A stretch of DNA of 41,184 nt, taken from a phage. The translations under genes and the position numbers were made by a program. Under the pieces are notes generated by a model. It saw only the letters and a program-made list of their open reading frames with translations, did not search any database and was not told where the DNA came from. Positions within the stretch are counted from its first letter, which is position 1. Each line of letters begins with the position of its first letter. The DNA lies in the sequence record NC_093713.1, one strand, 5' to 3'. This document shows positions 36,822-41,184 of the stretch, in pieces.

Positions 36822-37448
36822 ATGGGTATTAAACTGAATCTGCGTAAAGTAAACACTGCATGGGTTAACGTATTCGAACGCGAAAAAGACCGTGAAAACG
36901 ATGATGGCTCAATCACTAAAGGCCAGTACAGCGCGACTATCATCCTGCCGTCTGACCACGCACAAATCGACGCGCTCTACGACACCGTTTACGCTGTGGT
37001 TGAAGAAGCGTTGGGCGCAGCTGCCGCTGAGAAGTGGATGAAGTCCAACTACGGCGAAGGTAAGCACATGGATAAATGTGCGATTAAAGACATTGCCGAG
37101 CGCGACAATCCGTTTGAAGACTTCCCGGAAGGCTTCTACTTCAAGGCGAAGGCACAGAAACAGCCACTGATTGTAACCTCTAAAAAAGGCGAGACTCAGG
37201 TAGAACAGGACTTCAATGTAGACGGCGAACAGATTGAAGGTGAACAGGTTTACAGCGGCTGCGTCGCTAACGTAAGCGTTGAAATCTGGTTCAGTCAGAA
37301 ATATAAAGTCCTCGGCGTTAACCTGCTGGCGATTAAATACATTGGCGAAGGCAAAGCGTTTGGCGGTTCTAAAGTCGCTGCAAGCGTCAACGACCTGGAA
37401 GACGACGAAGAAGATGAAGCACCGCGCCGCGAGCGTCGTCGCCGCTAA
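36822..37448 (+). CDS. DUF2815-like protein (putative single-stranded DNA-binding protein)
   Basis: 208 aa with acidic C-terminal tail DLEDDEEDEAPRRERRRR; sits in the DUF2800 - DUF2815 - polymerase arrangement. Confidence 0.55.
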   Translation: MGIKLNLRKVNTAWVNVFEREKDRENDDGSITKGQYSATIILPSDHAQIDALYDTVYAVVEEALGAAAAEKWMKSNYGEGKHMDKCAIKDIAERDNPFEDFPEGFYFKAKAQKQPLIVTSKKGETQVEQDFNVDGEQIEGEQVYSGCVANVSVEIWFSQKYKVLGVNLLAIKYIGEGKAFGGSKVAASVNDLEDDEEDEAPRRERRRR

Positions 37449-37503: not shown

Positions 37504-37977
37504 ATGGAACATATAAAAGATTTTCTAAGCTACGACCGAGAAACCGGGGTATTTACGTGGATACAGCCTACTTACCGTCGAGGGCGACCGGGAGACATTG
37601 CGGGGTGCATCAATAGTAGTGGATACTGGCGAATTCCGTACATGGGTCGATATTACATGGCGCACAGGCTAGCGTGGTTTTTCGAGTACGGTGAATGGCC
37701 CGAAGGCCCTCTTGACCATATAAACCGTGACAGGTTAGACAATAGGATTTCTAACCTAAGGAAAGCAACAACCGCCGATAATGTGCGAAACGCTAAAAAT
37801 AAGGGAGCTAGAACAGGAGTTAAGGGGGTAGTTAAAAACGGCAACCGATTTTACGGGCGTGTGCATTTTAACTACAAAAGTTATAACGCTGGTAGCTACG
37901 GAACTCTTGAAGAAGCAGAAAGCGCTGTAAAGAAATTAAGAGAAAAACTGCACAAGGAATTTTATTGCCATGACTAG
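37504..37977 (+). CDS. HNH homing endonuclease (with AP2-like DNA-binding region)
   Basis: 157 aa; MAHRLAWFFEYGEWPEGPLDHINRDRLDNRISNL HNH motif; free-standing between SSB-like and polymerase genes. Confidence 0.7.
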   Translation: MEHIKDFLSYDRETGVFTWIQPTYRRGRPGDIAGCINSSGYWRIPYMGRYYMAHRLAWFFEYGEWPEGPLDHINRDRLDNRISNLRKATTADNVRNAKNKGARTGVKGVVKNGNRFYGRVHFNYKSYNAGSYGTLEEAESAVKKLREKLHKEFYCHD

Positions 37978-40147
37978 TTTATTATACCTGGATACCGAGA
38001 CGTTCTCTGAAGCGGACTTAAAGAAAGTCGGGTCGTATGCGTACGCGGAGCACCCAACGACAGAGGTTATAATTTGTACATATGCCGTTGATGACGGTCC
38101 TGTAGAAGTATGGGATTGCACTTCCGAACCAGTAATGCCGATAAGCCTCCGTGTTGCGCTCCGTAATGTTATGCGCGGACGTATGAAAATCGTGGGCCAT
38201 AACTTTTTAATGTTCGATCGTCTTATCATGAAGCATTGCTGGGACTTTGATATTCCGGTAAGCAACACCATTGATACGATGATTTGGGCGTTTCGTCACG
38301 CGCTGCCGGGTTCTCTTGATGCGCTGTGTGAAGTGCTTGGCGTGTCCGCAGACAACGCGAAAGACAAACGAGGCAAAGCGCTTATTCAGCGTTTTTCTAA
38401 ACCGACACCGAAGAACTACAAAATCCGCCGCTACACTGCTGAAACGCACCCGGATGAGTGGGCGCTGTTCATCAAGTACGCCGTTAGCGACATCACCGCG
38501 ATGCGTGAAGTGTTCCATAAGCTGCCACGTTGGGGCAACTCCGAGTTCGAAGACCGTGTGCTGGAACTGGACCAGTTAATCAACGACCGCGGGTTTAAGG
38601 TTGACGTTGCACTGGCGGAAGCCGCGATTGAAGCCGTGGAGAAACACAAAGCGCAGTTACAGGAAGAAGCCCAACGTAAATACGGCGGCTCGCTTACCGG
38701 AAAGGACTTCCTTCCTATTCTGCGTGAACTCGCACCGGCGCACCGTATTCACAACGCACAGAAGTCAACGCTTAACGACCTGCTTGCTGACGACGATTTA
38801 CCGGACGACGCCAGCGCGATTATCGAGATGCGACTCGGGGCCGCGTCTACCGCGTCAACGAAATATAACCCGCTGTTGTTGGGCCGCTCTTCTGACGACC
38901 GCCGTCGCGGTTGCATACAATATGGTGGAGCTAAGCGTACTTTACGGTTTGCAGGTAAAGGCTTCCAGCCGCAGAACCTCGCACGCGGGTACTATCACGA
39001 TGATGAACTGGATAAAGGAATTTCTGCGTTACTTAAGGGCCGCGCTCATCGTCGATTTGACGTAGCCAAGCTAACGGCATCTACCGTTCGTAGCTGCATC
39101 ATACCGGAAACTGGACATAAGTTTGTCGTTGCCGATTACTCTAACGTCGAAGGCCGCGGGCTTGCGTGGCTGGCGGGGGAAGAAACCGCGCTAGATACGT
39201 TCCGTGCCGGACTGGATATTTACTGCGTAACCGCGGGTAAGATGTTCGGTATGGAGCCGGATTACATTAAGAAAGAACGTAAAGACTTACGCCAGATTGG
39301 TAAGGCATGCGAACTGGGACTTGGCTACGCGGGTGGTGTCGGCGCATTCGTACAGTTCGCCAAGAACCTCGGCCTTGACCTTGTTGATATGGCAAAAACA
39401 ATGGACGGGACTTTCCCCGACCACATCTGGGCCGCTACCGCGCGTGGGTATGAGTGGGCGCGTATTCAGGAAGCCAAGAGACCGCCACGTCCCGGTGAAA
39501 AAGATGACCGACCATCATATATTCTGGACAAGAAAGTGTGGCGTACATGCGACGCCATCAAGCGTATGTGGCGGGAGTCTCACCCTGAAACAGTAGCTTT
39601 CTGGCGGGATATTGAAGACGCAGCTATGGCAGCTATCCGCAATCCAGGTAAAGAGTTCACTGCAGGGCCTCGCGGCGTTAAGTTTTCGCGTAACGTAGAG
39701 ACAGATAACAACGGCAACAAAGTCGCCGGTTGGTGGTTGCGCATGACGTTGCCGTCGGGCCGCGTTATGTCTTATCCAGGTGTCGGGTTAAGCGTGTCGA
39801 AAGAGACAGACGAAGACGGGAAGGTGTCCACTAACGTCCGCATCAAGTACCAGGGCGAAAACCAGTTAACACGGCAGTGGGGCTTCCAGTACACATATTC
39901 CGGTAAACTCGTGGAAAACTGCACTCAGGCGCTGTGCCGTGATTTGTTGGCTAATGCGCTGCTTAACGTAGAAGCAAACGGCTATCCGATTGTGCTTCAC
40001 GTACACGATGAGATTATCTGCGAGACACCAGATTTACCAGAATACAATGTTGCAGAGCTTGAGCGGTTGATGTGCGAATTACCGGAATGGGCTGAGGGGT
40101 TCCCTCTTGTAGCAGAAGGTGCGGAGATGAAGCGTTATGCCAAGTAA
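37970..40147 (+). CDS. DNA polymerase, family A, with 3'-5' exonuclease domain
   Basis: 725 aa; exo motif LYLDTETF; polymerase motif C LHVHDEII. Confidence 0.85.
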   Translation: MTSLLYLDTETFSEADLKKVGSYAYAEHPTTEVIICTYAVDDGPVEVWDCTSEPVMPISLRVALRNVMRGRMKIVGHNFLMFDRLIMKHCWDFDIPVSNTIDTMIWAFRHALPGSLDALCEVLGVSADNAKDKRGKALIQRFSKPTPKNYKIRRYTAETHPDEWALFIKYAVSDITAMREVFHKLPRWGNSEFEDRVLELDQLINDRGFKVDVALAEAAIEAVEKHKAQLQEEAQRKYGGSLTGKDFLPILRELAPAHRIHNAQKSTLNDLLADDDLPDDASAIIEMRLGAASTASTKYNPLLLGRSSDDRRRGCIQYGGAKRTLRFAGKGFQPQNLARGYYHDDELDKGISALLKGRAHRRFDVAKLTASTVRSCIIPETGHKFVVADYSNVEGRGLAWLAGEETALDTFRAGLDIYCVTAGKMFGMEPDYIKKERKDLRQIGKACELGLGYAGGVGAFVQFAKNLGLDLVDMAKTMDGTFPDHIWAATARGYEWARIQEAKRPPRPGEKDDRPSYILDKKVWRTCDAIKRMWRESHPETVAFWRDIEDAAMAAIRNPGKEFTAGPRGVKFSRNVETDNNGNKVAGWWLRMTLPSGRVMSYPGVGLSVSKETDEDGKVSTNVRIKYQGENQLTRQWGFQYTYSGKLVENCTQALCRDLLANALLNVEANGYPIVLHVHDEIICETPDLPEYNVAELERLMCELPEWAEGFPLVAEGAEMKRYAK

Positions 40148-40268
40148 ACTGATTATCGCGGTACTGGCGGGATTTGCTGCCGGTGTCTACTGTCACGAGG
40201 GTCAATACAGCATGATGGTCGCCATATTGGGCATGTTCATCGCAATTTATCTGTGGGTGCTGGAATGA
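40137..40268 (+). CDS. small hydrophobic peptide (43 aa)
   Basis: Hand-translated MPSKLIIAVLAGFAAGVYCHEGQYSMMVAILGMFIAIYLWVLE; overlaps polymerase stop; not in ORF track. Confidence 0.35.
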   Translation: MPSKLIIAVLAGFAAGVYCHEGQYSMMVAILGMFIAIYLWVLE

Positions 40269-40354
40269 AAATCTACTGGTTTTATGAAGAAGACTGTCGA
40301 ATCTGTCCGCGCTGCGGTATTGAACATACGAAACGGGAGGGGTGCGTACTATGA
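40265..40354 (+). CDS. small Cys-rich peptide (29 aa), zinc-ribbon-like
   Basis: Hand-translated MKIYWFYEEDCRICPRCGIEHTKREGCVL; ATGA-coupled. Confidence 0.3.
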   Translation: MKIYWFYEEDCRICPRCGIEHTKREGCVL

Positions 40355-40503
40355 CAATGTTTGTATTTCGGACGATAGTAACCATGCTCGCACTGTTACT
40401 CGGGGCGGGAATAGCCGCGATGTTCTGTTACGGCCTGTTCTTTAAGTTTGCCGGTGTTGCCGTTCTAGGCGGGGCGTTTATAACTTGGGTTCTGCGCTCA
40501 TGA
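40351..40503 (+). CDS. small membrane peptide (50 aa)
   Basis: Hand-translated MTMFVFRTIVTMLALLLGAGIAAMFCYGLFFKFAGVAVLGGAFITWVLRS; ATGA-coupled to VRR-NUC. Confidence 0.35.
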   Translation: MTMFVFRTIVTMLALLLGAGIAAMFCYGLFFKFAGVAVLGGAFITWVLRS

Positions 40504-40784
40504 CCCCGGAAGGCAAAATACAGAAATACGCAAAAGAGCGATTCGAGGCCATCGGCGGCCTCGTTCGTAAGCTCTCCTACGAAGGACGTTCGGGTGCCCC
40601 TGACCTGCTGGTAATTCTCCCCGGCGGCATAGTCTGGTTCGTCGAGGTGAAGAAAGACGAAAACACGAAGCCAGACCCGCACCAGATACGTGAGCACGAG
40701 CGGATGCGTAAACGTGGTGCGAATGTTTTTGTCGTTGGTTCGTTTAAACAGGTTGACGACCTAATAGCGAGCTATTATAGTTAG
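40500..40784 (+). CDS. VRR-NUC domain nuclease
   Basis: 94 aa from ATG at 40500; PDLLVILPGGIVWFVEVKKDENTKPDPHQ fits the VRR-NUC pattern. Confidence 0.65.
   Translation: MTPEGKIQKYAKERFEAIGGLVRKLSYEGRSGAPDLLVILPGGIVWFVEVKKDENTKPDPHQIREHERMRKRGANVFVVGSFKQVDDLIASYYS
40753..40781 (+). promoter_or_regulatory. sigma70-like promoter (TTGACG-N17-TATAGT) with conserved palindromic element, inside the 3' end of the VRR-NUC gene
   Basis: CTAATAGCGAGCTATTATAGTT. Confidence 0.5.
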
Positions 40785-40814
40785 TCATACACCAACAATA
40801 TAAGGAATTGAGAA

Positions 40815-41006
40815 ATGAAACACGAATATGACCGCAAACCAGCACGTGACATCGTACCTGGCGATATGATTTTCAACGTTAAGACCCGCCACCCTGTTGC
40901 CGTTGATACGGTGTACGTCGAGTCAAACGGTAAACTGGTTATCGAAGATGTAACCGGTAACGTTACGGCGTTCGGTCGTAAAGAGTTAGTTCTGGTGGCG
41001 AAATGA
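40815..41006 (+). CDS. hypothetical protein (63 aa)
   Basis: ORF track; SD AAGGAA. Confidence 0.45.
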   Translation: MKHEYDRKPARDIVPGDMIFNVKTRHPVAVDTVYVESNGKLVIEDVTGNVTAFGRKELVLVAK

Positions 41007-41184
41007 ACTATTACAATGAATGGGATAAAGGCGCAGCCGCGTGGCTGCGTGAGTTGATAAAACAGGGTCACATACCTTTTGGAGTTGTAGATGAAAGAAG
41101 CATTACCGAAGTTAAGCCAGAAGACCTTGACGGGTTCACCCAGTGTCATTTTTTCGCGGGTATCGGCGGCTGGCCTCTCGCGCT
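41003..41184 (+). CDS. DNA (cytosine-5)-methyltransferase, N-terminal fragment (runs off the window end)
   Basis: Hand-translated MNYYNEWDKGAAAWLRELIKQGHIPFGVVDERSITEVKPEDLDGFTQCHFFAGIGGWPLA; motif I FAGIGG; ATGA overlap with upstream gene. Confidence 0.65.
   Translation, partial: MNYYNEWDKGAAAWLRELIKQGHIPFGVVDERSITEVKPEDLDGFTQCHFFAGIGGWPLA

Follow-up and report, generated by a model that had tools for sequence, protein, structure and literature searches.

T4 Imm and HK97 gp15 are small early inner-membrane proteins, which act on those steps of a second infection that take place at the membrane; a larger superinfection-exclusion protein is P22 SieA. Small membrane proteins are also found among the early genes of phi29, where p1 and p16.7 have been proposed as anchors of the replication machinery (PMC4974454).

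Here we analyse three micro-ORFs – orfA, orfB and orfC, with products A, B and C – that lie between the DNA polymerase and VRR-NUC genes of a Kagunavirus-like (Guernseyvirinae) siphophage of E. coli. The window, that is, the whole stretch of DNA analysed, comprises 41,184 nucleotides (sequence record NC_093713.1). As with Imm and gp15, A and C are short hydrophobic phage products, likely of the inner membrane, with a patchy, accessory distribution. They are, however, half the size of Imm, and neither Imm_superinfect nor any other Pfam family matches them at E ≤ 1; moreover, a close relative carries a separate Imm-like gene. With p1 and p16.7 they have in common that they are small, probable membrane proteins whose genes lie among those for early replication, for expression with the polymerase. 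But the phi29 proteins are larger (~85–130 aa), contain soluble interaction domains and act together with a terminal protein, which the window phage does not have; no sequence relationship between the two pairs is known, and most relatives can dispense with A and C. We consider it probable that the best explanation of the locus as a whole is a set of coding genes for accessory membrane micro-proteins (A and C) and a putative zinc-binding mini-protein (B).

Results

Organization of the locus

The genes pol, orfA, orfB, orfC and VRR-NUC form a single string, all in one direction and without gaps (Table 1): the interval between pol and VRR-NUC is filled by the three micro-ORFs, and their base composition is that of the neighbouring genes. 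The homologue of the polymerase in phage fKuEco01 is annotated as a DNA polymerase with DnaQ-like exonuclease and Pol A domains. The first-pass annotation had reported micro-ORFs of 43, 29 and 50 aa at this place, and they are present exactly where it put them. It had also described an ATGA overlap at each start, which is true of three of the four junctions (A/B, B/C and C/VRR-NUC); the pol/orfA junction instead consists of an 11-nt overlap (ATGCCAAGTAA) with the polymerase TAA.

The GGAG that precedes orfA is retained in both variants of the pol 3′-end (...gcGGAGatgaagcgttATG and ...caGGAGttaaaacgttATG), and the GGGAGGGG motif that precedes orfC is unchanged in 15 of 15 A-B-C-type loci. Between pol and VRR-NUC we found no terminator, and no promoter better than chance. 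Given overlapping stop and start codons within one string, the arrangement permits translation coupled to that of the replication genes, and it is by such coupling that A, B and C would be co-translated with them.

Table 1. Features of the pol to VRR-NUC region, in coordinates of the window
Feature	Position	Strand	Remarks
Family A DNA polymerase (PolA) gene, 725 aa	37970..40147	+	Stop TAA 40145-40147; last 11 nt shared with orfA start
GGAG Shine-Dalgarno-like motif	40123..40126	+	Within pol CDS, 10 nt 5′ of orfA ATG; read from sequence
orfA, hydrophobic micro-protein, 43 aa	40137..40268	+	ATG 40137, TGA 40268
orfB, Cys-rich micro-protein, 29 aa, MKIYWFYEEDCRICPRCGIEHTKREGCVL	40265..40354	+	ATG 40265, TGA 40354
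Shine-Dalgarno motif GGGAGGGG	40335..40342	+	Within orfB (codons K-R-E-G), 8-10 nt 5′ of orfC ATG
orfC, very hydrophobic micro-protein, 50 aa	40351..40503	+	ATG 40351, TGA 40503
VRR-NUC / Holliday-junction-resolvase-like nuclease gene, 94 aa	40500..40784	+	ATG 40500; phrog_93, phrog_5702; weak PF08774 match

Coding status of the three ORFs

A synonymous-site analysis across related phages, which the first-pass annotation had proposed, points clearly to the three annotated frames. In 52 related loci the in-frame dN/dS, a pooled pairwise estimate without phylogenetic correction, is 0.21 for orfA, 0.09 for orfB and 0.17 for orfC, as against 0.87–2.5 in the two alternative frames; the flanking genes gave matching values of 0.15 (VRR-NUC) and 0.07 (a 63-aa gene). 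Not one premature stop is present among the unique nucleotide versions found in related phages (39 of A, 45 of B, 24 of C), lengths within these versions are constant save at defined module junctions, and the ATG starts are retained. A frame not conserved among related phages had been set beforehand as grounds for refutation: the frame is strictly kept. The combination of purifying selection, constant length and freedom from internal stops indicates that orfA, orfB and orfC are genuine protein-coding genes, a conclusion that we regard, from these sequence comparisons, as near certain.

Two other open frames overlap the region. Of 15 relatives, 11 have a disrupted version of an antisense ORF of 123 aa (40014-40385, minus strand), and a 53-aa ORF in another plus-strand frame (40284-40445) is shortened to 21–43 aa in many relatives; both were rejected as real genes. 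A scan of 39900-40800 against Rfam gave no match. Our literature search found neither a Ribo-seq nor a proteome data set covering the three genes, nor functional or expression data on them; the sole Guernseyvirinae transcriptome that we located, that of K1B4, has 57 annotated genes, from which orfA, orfB and orfC are omitted.

Distribution and the cassette slot

The three genes differ greatly in how widely they occur. orfB is carried by 444 of the 446 matching phage records, orfA by 223 and orfC by 120; among otherwise near-identical phages, roughly one half have no A and some three quarters no C. The 52 loci fall into several architectures, the commonest being A-B-C (17 loci) and A-B (13), followed by A-B-X-C (7) and A'B (5), with A-B-X and A-B-c' at three loci each and A-B-HNH and A'B-C at two each. 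Seven loci lack A by virtue of an in-frame deletion that fuses the MLSK of A to residue 2 of B: here B is thus still translated from the pol-coupled start. This, together with its near-universal presence, points to a need for B.

The position immediately after orfB is a modular cassette slot. Its occupant may be C, a single-TM peptide of 23–25 aa, a soluble protein of 63–64 aa or an HNH homing endonuclease; where it is empty, VRR-NUC follows directly. The junction (...GGGTGCGTAyTATGA) is common to the cassettes, and the 3′-end of orfB supplies both the ribosome-binding site and the ATG of whichever gene comes next. In more distant relatives VRR-NUC directly abuts pol and all three ORFs are absent, while three phages that are more distant still (pol ~40% identical) have an unrelated tail-anchored membrane ORF of 56–59 aa between pol and VRR-NUC. 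Judged by gene content, B is core to the Kagunavirus/Jerseyvirus lineage and A and C are accessory. Indeed, because most relatives have a working replication module that lacks A or C, these two are best seen as accessory genes in a variable slot and not as part of the replisome.

The hydrophobic proteins A and C

That two of the micro-ORFs encode strongly hydrophobic products, as the first-pass annotation had it, is borne out for orfA and orfC by GRAVY values (1.34 and 1.65, respectively), by Hessa energies and by helical AF2 models. Summed insertion energies are negative for residues 24–42 of A and 8–26 of C, and each protein, by calculation, contains at least one hydrophobic segment long enough to span a bilayer. 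A is modelled as a helical hairpin (helices 2–18 and 23–42, pLDDT 88), and its loop is invariant in the alignment: Y18-C19-H20, then E-G-Q-Y24. For C the single-sequence model gives one helix spanning residues 2–49 (pLDDT 92). The protein has repeated small-xxx-small motifs (LLLGAGIAA, GVAVLGGAF) of glycine-zipper-like character, together with conserved K32 and R49; its topology may be either a TM hairpin or a single long helix, between which single-sequence AF2 does not decide. On these models and calculations a membrane location is likely for both A and C.

The cysteine-rich protein B

The middle ORF does encode a Cys-rich product, a soluble mini-protein by its sequence, and the CxxCxxC cluster ascribed to it is present at residues 11–17, with a CPRCG knuckle; the first cysteine of the cluster is nonetheless not constant, C11 being replaced by R or F in ~7 of ~40 protein variants. 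C14, C17, H21 and C27 are nearly invariant and constitute candidate ligands. From C14-X2-C17 through H21 to C27, B covers the same 14 residues as a CCHC zinc knuckle, but its spacing is C-X2-C-X3-H-X5-C and not the C-X2-C-X4-H-X4-C of that class, to which it does not belong by spacing; nor was there a zf-CCHC match in Pfam at E ≤ 1. CPRCG is typical of the knuckles of zinc ribbons and rubredoxins. A zinc ribbon, however, has two CxxC knuckles parted by a beta-hairpin, whereas B has the one CPRCG knuckle plus C11, H21 and C27. Since B has a single canonical knuckle, a second ligand pair would have to be drawn from C11, H21 or C27, or be supplied by a partner. A phmmer search of B against the PDB returned only non-significant zinc-knuckle fragments (E of at least 0.4), for example from COX5B (FWLHKGEAQRCPRCGAHY). 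We predict a single Zn2+ site in B, most likely formed by C14/C17 and H21/C27, with C11 as an alternative ligand.

Prior annotation and distant relatives

All three proteins belong to catalogued families: A to phrog_10404 (E 1e-31, residues 1–43 of 43), B to phrog_38225 (E 2.5e-22, residues 1–28, profile positions 5–32 of 36) and C to phrog_14925 (E 5.8e-33, residues 1–50 of 50). Each of these is listed as a family of unknown function, and the window copies are ordinary members of them. Many phage records in GenBank list the ORFs as genes for hypothetical proteins (for example KE1_038/037/036 of fKuEco01), and in annotated relatives gene order and overlaps are the same as in the window, with 90–100% identity. 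The notion that they are unusual or overlooked does not survive this comparison, the genes being annotated in GenBank, matched by PHROGs and recurrent in 120–444 sequenced phages: because public phage records and family catalogues list all three, the observation, correct as it is, is a fairly ordinary one.

No family of known function in Pfam or PADLOC (both at E ≤ 1), in NCBIfam or in the PDB matches A, B or C. A word-indexed protein search with A, C and an extended B query recovered only close relatives, of at least 74% identity, on phage contigs of 40–46 kb. A combined B+C profile, run against 1.84 billion representatives, revealed two distant homologues of C (P0178 and P0180, 43–51% identity), both of which lie directly after PolA in two other lineages, their starts overlapping the PolA stop as ATGA. 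Two further new matches to this profile, P0177 and P0179, were repetitive junk proteins and were rejected.

Discussion

What A, B and C do for the phage is a guess, and one that we would put at somewhat under an even chance of being right. By analogy, the model for A and C is that of small membrane proteins, made early by phages, that keep out superinfecting phages or oppose defences bound to the membrane. They would enter the inner membrane of the host while infection is in its replication phase and there, most plausibly, pack against a host or phage membrane protein, as dispensable, host-directed accessory factors and not as parts of the replisome. Among the known anti-phage defence components in PADLOC, none matched the micro-proteins at E ≤ 1. 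B, a core gene, would most likely work alongside the replication and recombination proteins that are its constant gene neighbours. An observation that runs against a host-directed role is the presence of C-type peptides at the polymerase stop in two more distant lineages, which could mean a link to replication.

Several other explanations deserve consideration. The suggestion that orfA, orfB and orfC are open by chance alone, within an intergenic spacer or a recombination scar, or that another ORF is the real gene, may draw on the shortness of the ORFs and on records such as K1H (NC_027994) that leave them without annotation; but with purifying selection strong and frame-specific, with lengths and start codons kept across dozens of distinct sequences, and with no RNA family matched, it is effectively refuted, and we give it a negligible probability. 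A functional alternative is that the PolA/VRR-NUC machinery, or the replicating DNA, is tethered to the inner membrane by A and/or C, B serving as a small zinc adaptor. The position of the genes inside the replication operon, translationally coupled to pol, is consistent with such tethering, as are the precedent of phi29 (PMC4974454), the distant C homologues whose starts again overlap the PolA stop, and the unrelated tail-anchored ORF found at the same place in three phages with diverged polymerases. It is nonetheless unlikely: phages that are otherwise near-identical frequently lack A, C or both, unrelated cassettes – or nothing – can replace C, VRR-NUC directly follows pol in many relatives, neither protein is known to resemble an established anchor in sequence, and the conserved synteny may merely reflect common ancestry of the module. 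That the C-family peptide, along with A and a B zinc adaptor, is a dedicated polymerase-coupled inner-membrane anchor that compartmentalises PolA/VRR-NUC-type replication in Gram-negative hosts appears improbable. If true, such an anchor would represent a principle like that of phi29 p1/p16.7 in an unrelated siphophage group, and would explain the recurrence of C-type and tail-anchored micro-proteins exactly at the stop codon of pol in a number of diverged lineages.

A and/or C could also be toxin-, holin- or antiholin-like peptides that depolarise the inner membrane or make it permeable, thereby effecting host shut-off or setting the time of lysis. At 43–50 aa, extremely hydrophobic and with glycine-zipper-like motifs, they are reminiscent, in overall character, of type I toxins and pinholin-like peptides. 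Yet searches of Pfam, NCBIfam and PHROGs linked them to no holin or toxin family, and for peptides that would be co-expressed with replication genes early membrane damage would be costly. The lysis genes, moreover, have a separate late cassette of their own, with an endolysin, a spanin and two holin-like genes; with holins and spanin elsewhere, the lysis cassette is not what A and C form. We regard membrane damage as a very improbable role.

The reading of A and C as accessory membrane micro-proteins, and of all three ORFs as coding genes, has consequences of several kinds. ORFs of sub-50-codon size that were missed by several gene callers and are absent from some reference records (K1G, K1H, K1ind1, SETP3) are settled as real genes, which improves annotation for Kagunavirus and Jerseyvirus, a group widely isolated for therapy and biocontrol. 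The pol/VRR-NUC junction emerges as a defined cassette slot, and could serve as a natural insertion place for payload genes. Furthermore, genomes that are near-identical except in whether they have A, C, c' and X amount to a clean natural experiment on what small phage membrane proteins do; the biological pay-off of orfA, orfB and orfC hinges on their function.

Rare A-B and B-C fusion proteins also occur, in raw-read assemblies. As Rosetta-stone evidence of joint action they were set aside, because each frameshift is unique, lying at a different position in every case, and is most likely a sequencing error.

Coding capacity and coupling

Between the genes for the family A DNA polymerase (pol, product PolA) and a Holliday-junction-resolvase-like nuclease (VRR-NUC) lie three micro-ORFs, orfA, orfB and orfC (products A, B and C), which comparison with relatives shows to be genuine, conserved genes for micro-proteins, in an arrangement that suits translational coupling. 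The first-pass annotation described them as coupled small peptides, two of membrane type, a description borne out by sequence, overlaps and hydrophobicity. Its statement that each start overlaps the previous stop as ATGA holds at three of four junctions (A/B, B/C and C/VRR-NUC, the last ATG being at 40500), the pol/A junction being instead an 11-nt overlap. SD-like motifs precede orfA and orfC; on reading the sequence such motifs are weak at orfB and VRR-NUC, which, with the ATGA overlaps, is consistent with termination-reinitiation. No terminator, and no promoter above chance level, was found in the pol to VRR-NUC interval.

Coordinates of the micro-ORFs and associated features
Feature	Position	Strand	Description	Basis
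HNH/AP2-type free-standing endonuclease gene	37504-37977	+	157 aa; between DUF2815 gene (36822-37448) and pol	
SD-like motif	40123-40126		GGAG, 5′ of orfA	sequence reading, conservation in relatives
orfA	40137-40268	+	43 aa, MPSKLIIAVLAGFAAGVYCHEGQYSMMVAILGMFIAIYLWVLE	
orfB	40265-40354	+	29 aa, MKIYWFYEEDCRICPRCGIEHTKREGCVL	
SD-like motif	40335-40342		GGGAGGGG, 5′ of orfC	sequence reading, conservation in relatives
orfC	40351-40503	+	50 aa, MTMFVFRTIVTMLALLLGAGIAAMFCYGLFFKFAGVAVLGGAFITWVLRS	
Distant orfC homolog	L086 318-470		51% identical	
Distant orfC homolog	L087 532-678		43% identical	
56-59-aa ORF	L071 +244..+420		from pol stop	
56-59-aa ORF	L072 +382..+561		from pol stop	
56-59-aa ORF	L073 +51..+221		from pol stop	

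For the comparison, the surroundings of relatives of the pol C-terminus were taken at 80 loci, and four annotated records were added; orfB is carried by 52 loci, the window counted among them. Frame conservation in related phages, a check that the first-pass annotation had suggested, is evident: frames are intact and in-frame dN/dS is low.

Pooled pairwise dN/dS (Nei-Gojobori) by reading frame
Gene	In frame	Other two frames
orfA	0.21	1.03, 2.16
orfB	0.09	2.49, 1.58
orfC	0.17	0.87, 1.61
VRR-NUC (flanking control)	0.15	1.48, 2.62
63-aa gene (flanking control)	0.07	2.85, 1.96

Length and stop codon are constant in all 39 unique A and all 24 unique C sequences, none of which contains an internal stop; orfB has two defined C-terminal forms among relatives. 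The ORFs do not differ from their neighbours in base composition, and an Rfam search of the region returned no match. Two other candidates for the gene were rejected: a 123-aa antisense ORF is broken in 11 of 15 A-B-C-type relatives, and a 53-aa ORF in an alternative plus-strand frame is shortened in many. From this combined sequence evidence we conclude that the three ORFs are coding; that they are non-genes is scarcely credible, given in-frame values of 0.09-0.21 against 0.87-2.49 in the other frames. In a related phage studied by temporal transcriptomics, only 57 genes are annotated, A, B and C not among them. At one SETP3-like locus (L036) ACG replaces the ATG of orfA and the otherwise invariant Cys19 is Arg; orfA may be decaying in this phage.

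The ORFs had also been considered unusual, a view that existing records do not support: hundreds of sequenced phages share them, and they are already listed as hypothetical proteins. In Escherichia phage vB_EcoS_fKuEco01 they are named KE1_038, KE1_037 and KE1_036 (GenBank), and many other phage records carry three hypothetical proteins at the same place; the older records of K1H, K1G, K1ind1 and SETP3 leave them unannotated. They match phrog_10404, phrog_38225 and phrog_14925 end to end, all families of unknown function, and gave nothing significant in Pfam, NCBIfam, PADLOC and PDB searches.

Distribution and the cassette slot

A tblastn search of 50,697 phage records gave 444 with B, 223 with A and 120 with C; each is an Escherichia or Salmonella phage or a close relative of Guernseyvirinae type. 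In a collection of 5.8 billion proteins no homolog falls below 74% identity, and all lie on contigs of at most ~46 kb; they are therefore phage rather than bacterial genes. Relatives whose pol is 36-61% identical are without A, B and C, and in many VRR-NUC directly follows pol; none of the three is therefore a core part of the replisome.

The architectures of the 52 orfB loci show that the part of the replication operon which holds A, B and C is a modular cassette slot. A-B-C occurs at 17 loci and A-B, then VRR-NUC, at 13 (in each case one with an extra HNH gene before A), followed by A-B-X-C (7), A'B (5), A-B-X (3), A-B-c' (3), A-B-HNH or HNH remnant (2) and A'B-C (2), where X is a 63-64-aa soluble protein and c' a 23-25-aa single-TM peptide. 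A'B is an in-frame deletion fusing the first four A codons (MLSK) to B residue 2, so that B is still translated from the pol-coupled start despite the loss of A. This fusion, near-universal presence and the lowest dN/dS mark B as the functionally important member of the trio. Every cassette after B begins at one shared ATG, which lies in the conserved junction sequence ...GGGTGCGTAyTATGA; orfB thus provides, in its 3′ end, a ribosome-binding site and start that serve whichever cassette follows.

X (MSNKPFSKKLAALVDMPEWEFIMVMGDGFFSDVCAGCTHKGVYYSEHDIYQAYFLRNPDAEPLL) fills the slot after orfB alone or ahead of orfC (L003, L004, L006, L020, L026, L028, L030, L034, L047, L050). The 23-25-aa peptides MTMLTTIMIIVAVFLGVAVLSKVTD and MITIIAVLVALLLGAAIFSRIIG, which stand in for orfC in L015, L029 and L033, are mutually related, with a marginal relation only to the N-terminal helix of C. 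Rare 68-79-aa fusions of A with B (P0101-P0105, P0174, P0176) or B with C (P0080, P0091, P0093) arise from single frameshifts at differing positions; most come from raw-read (Logan) assemblies, and sequencing error rather than natural fusion is the probable cause.

Predicted products

Modelling shows A and C as predicted membrane helices, B being Cys/His-rich. For A, AF2 run on 20 aligned sequences predicts a hairpin of two helices, 2-18 and 23-42 (pLDDT 88); in the alignment Y18, C19, H20 and Y24 never vary, and E21, G22 and Q23 hardly do. For C, a single-sequence AF2 model is one helix (residues 2-49, pLDDT 92), hairpin and single span both being compatible; small-xxx-small motifs are repeated, and K32 and R49 conserved. 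In both proteins some segments have a negative summed Hessa insertion energy.

The CxxCxxC cluster pointed out earlier in B is present in the window, but several variants have R or F in place of C11, whereas C14, C17, H21 and C27 are nearly invariant; the candidate metal site is thus probably C14-X2-C17-X3-H21-X5-C27 rather than that cluster. This site equals a CCHC zinc knuckle in span, with the His displaced by one residue; no Pfam profile match to that knuckle was found, and a PDB search likened the CPRCG motif to zinc-ribbon knuckles at a non-significant level.

Possible roles

We propose that A and C would insert into the inner membrane as dispensable accessory factors aimed at host or competitor, for example by excluding superinfecting phages or by interfering with membrane-bound defences, and that B might bind zinc and work with replication/recombination proteins. 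Patchy distribution and cassette turnover favour such a host- or competitor-directed role of A and C over one in the replisome, and so weigh against replication anchoring, for which phi29 p1 and p16.7 provide a precedent (PMC4974454). Anchoring, which we consider unlikely, derives from the recurrence of small membrane ORFs after PolA in diverged phages, the only observation that points beyond a random accessory gene. P0178 (50 aa, with 51% identity to C) and P0180 (48 aa from an internal ATG, 43% identity) are genuine remote homologs of C on short metagenomic contigs, their starts overlapping the PolA stop as ATGA (...GCGAAATGA...) and VRR-NUC following a few genes downstream; compared with the window, the pol C-termini are 61-73% and the VRR-NUC proteins 49-56% identical. 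In three phages more distant still, the interval between pol and VRR-NUC holds an unrelated tail-anchored membrane ORF of 56-59 aa. That A and C are membrane-damaging or lysis-timing peptides seems to us still less probable than anchoring; the annotated relative has its holins, endolysin, spanin and Imm-like gene in other parts of the genome.

An exhaustive search of 1.84 billion representative proteins with a combined B+C profile gave only eight hits; the new ones are P0178, P0180 and two that were rejected as repeat artefacts. The homologs in L086 and L087 are 39% identical to each other, their pol C-termini 93%. The 56-59-aa ORF is conserved, with a C-terminal transmembrane segment (e.g. 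MFSKDNRHYRSTPRSIQQAFGPYHRFDIAVCKRHERLCAIVGVIVVGVIYGILFAS) and no sequence relation to A or C; pol in these phages is only ~40% identical to that of the window.

Genomic setting

A DNA search matched 446 phage records and placed the region among Guernseyvirinae phages of E. coli and Salmonella, fKuEco01 (Kagunavirus) being closest (95% identity) and K1H next (92%). By the gene annotation of a relative, the ORFs lie in a replication/recombination block: helicase-primase, Cas4-like nuclease, DUF2815 protein, PolA, three hypothetical proteins, VRR-NUC, 63-aa protein, methyltransferase and SNF2-type helicase.

The stop of the HNH/AP2-type endonuclease gene overlaps the pol ATG (37970); the close relatives fKuEco01 and L011 are without this gene, the interval there being ~40-60 nt, and in relatives similar HNH genes occupy other operon slots, before orfA (L023, L042) or after orfB (L036). 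A cytosine methyltransferase gene (41003-41184) leaves the window end and seems to resume at its start (~1-736); the contig is therefore circularly permuted. L011, another 41,184-bp contig from the same metagenome, is 92-97% identical to the window across aligned stretches, and its alignment jumps from 41006 straight to 737, without the methyltransferase segment. Several Jerseyvirus relatives (L036, L045) have an SNF2-type helicase, encoded downstream, that is enlarged by an intein-like insertion (600+ to 752 aa vs 474 aa). Some matching phage records annotate an 'intein-containing DNA polymerase precursor'; the window pol (725 aa) is without an intein-like insertion.
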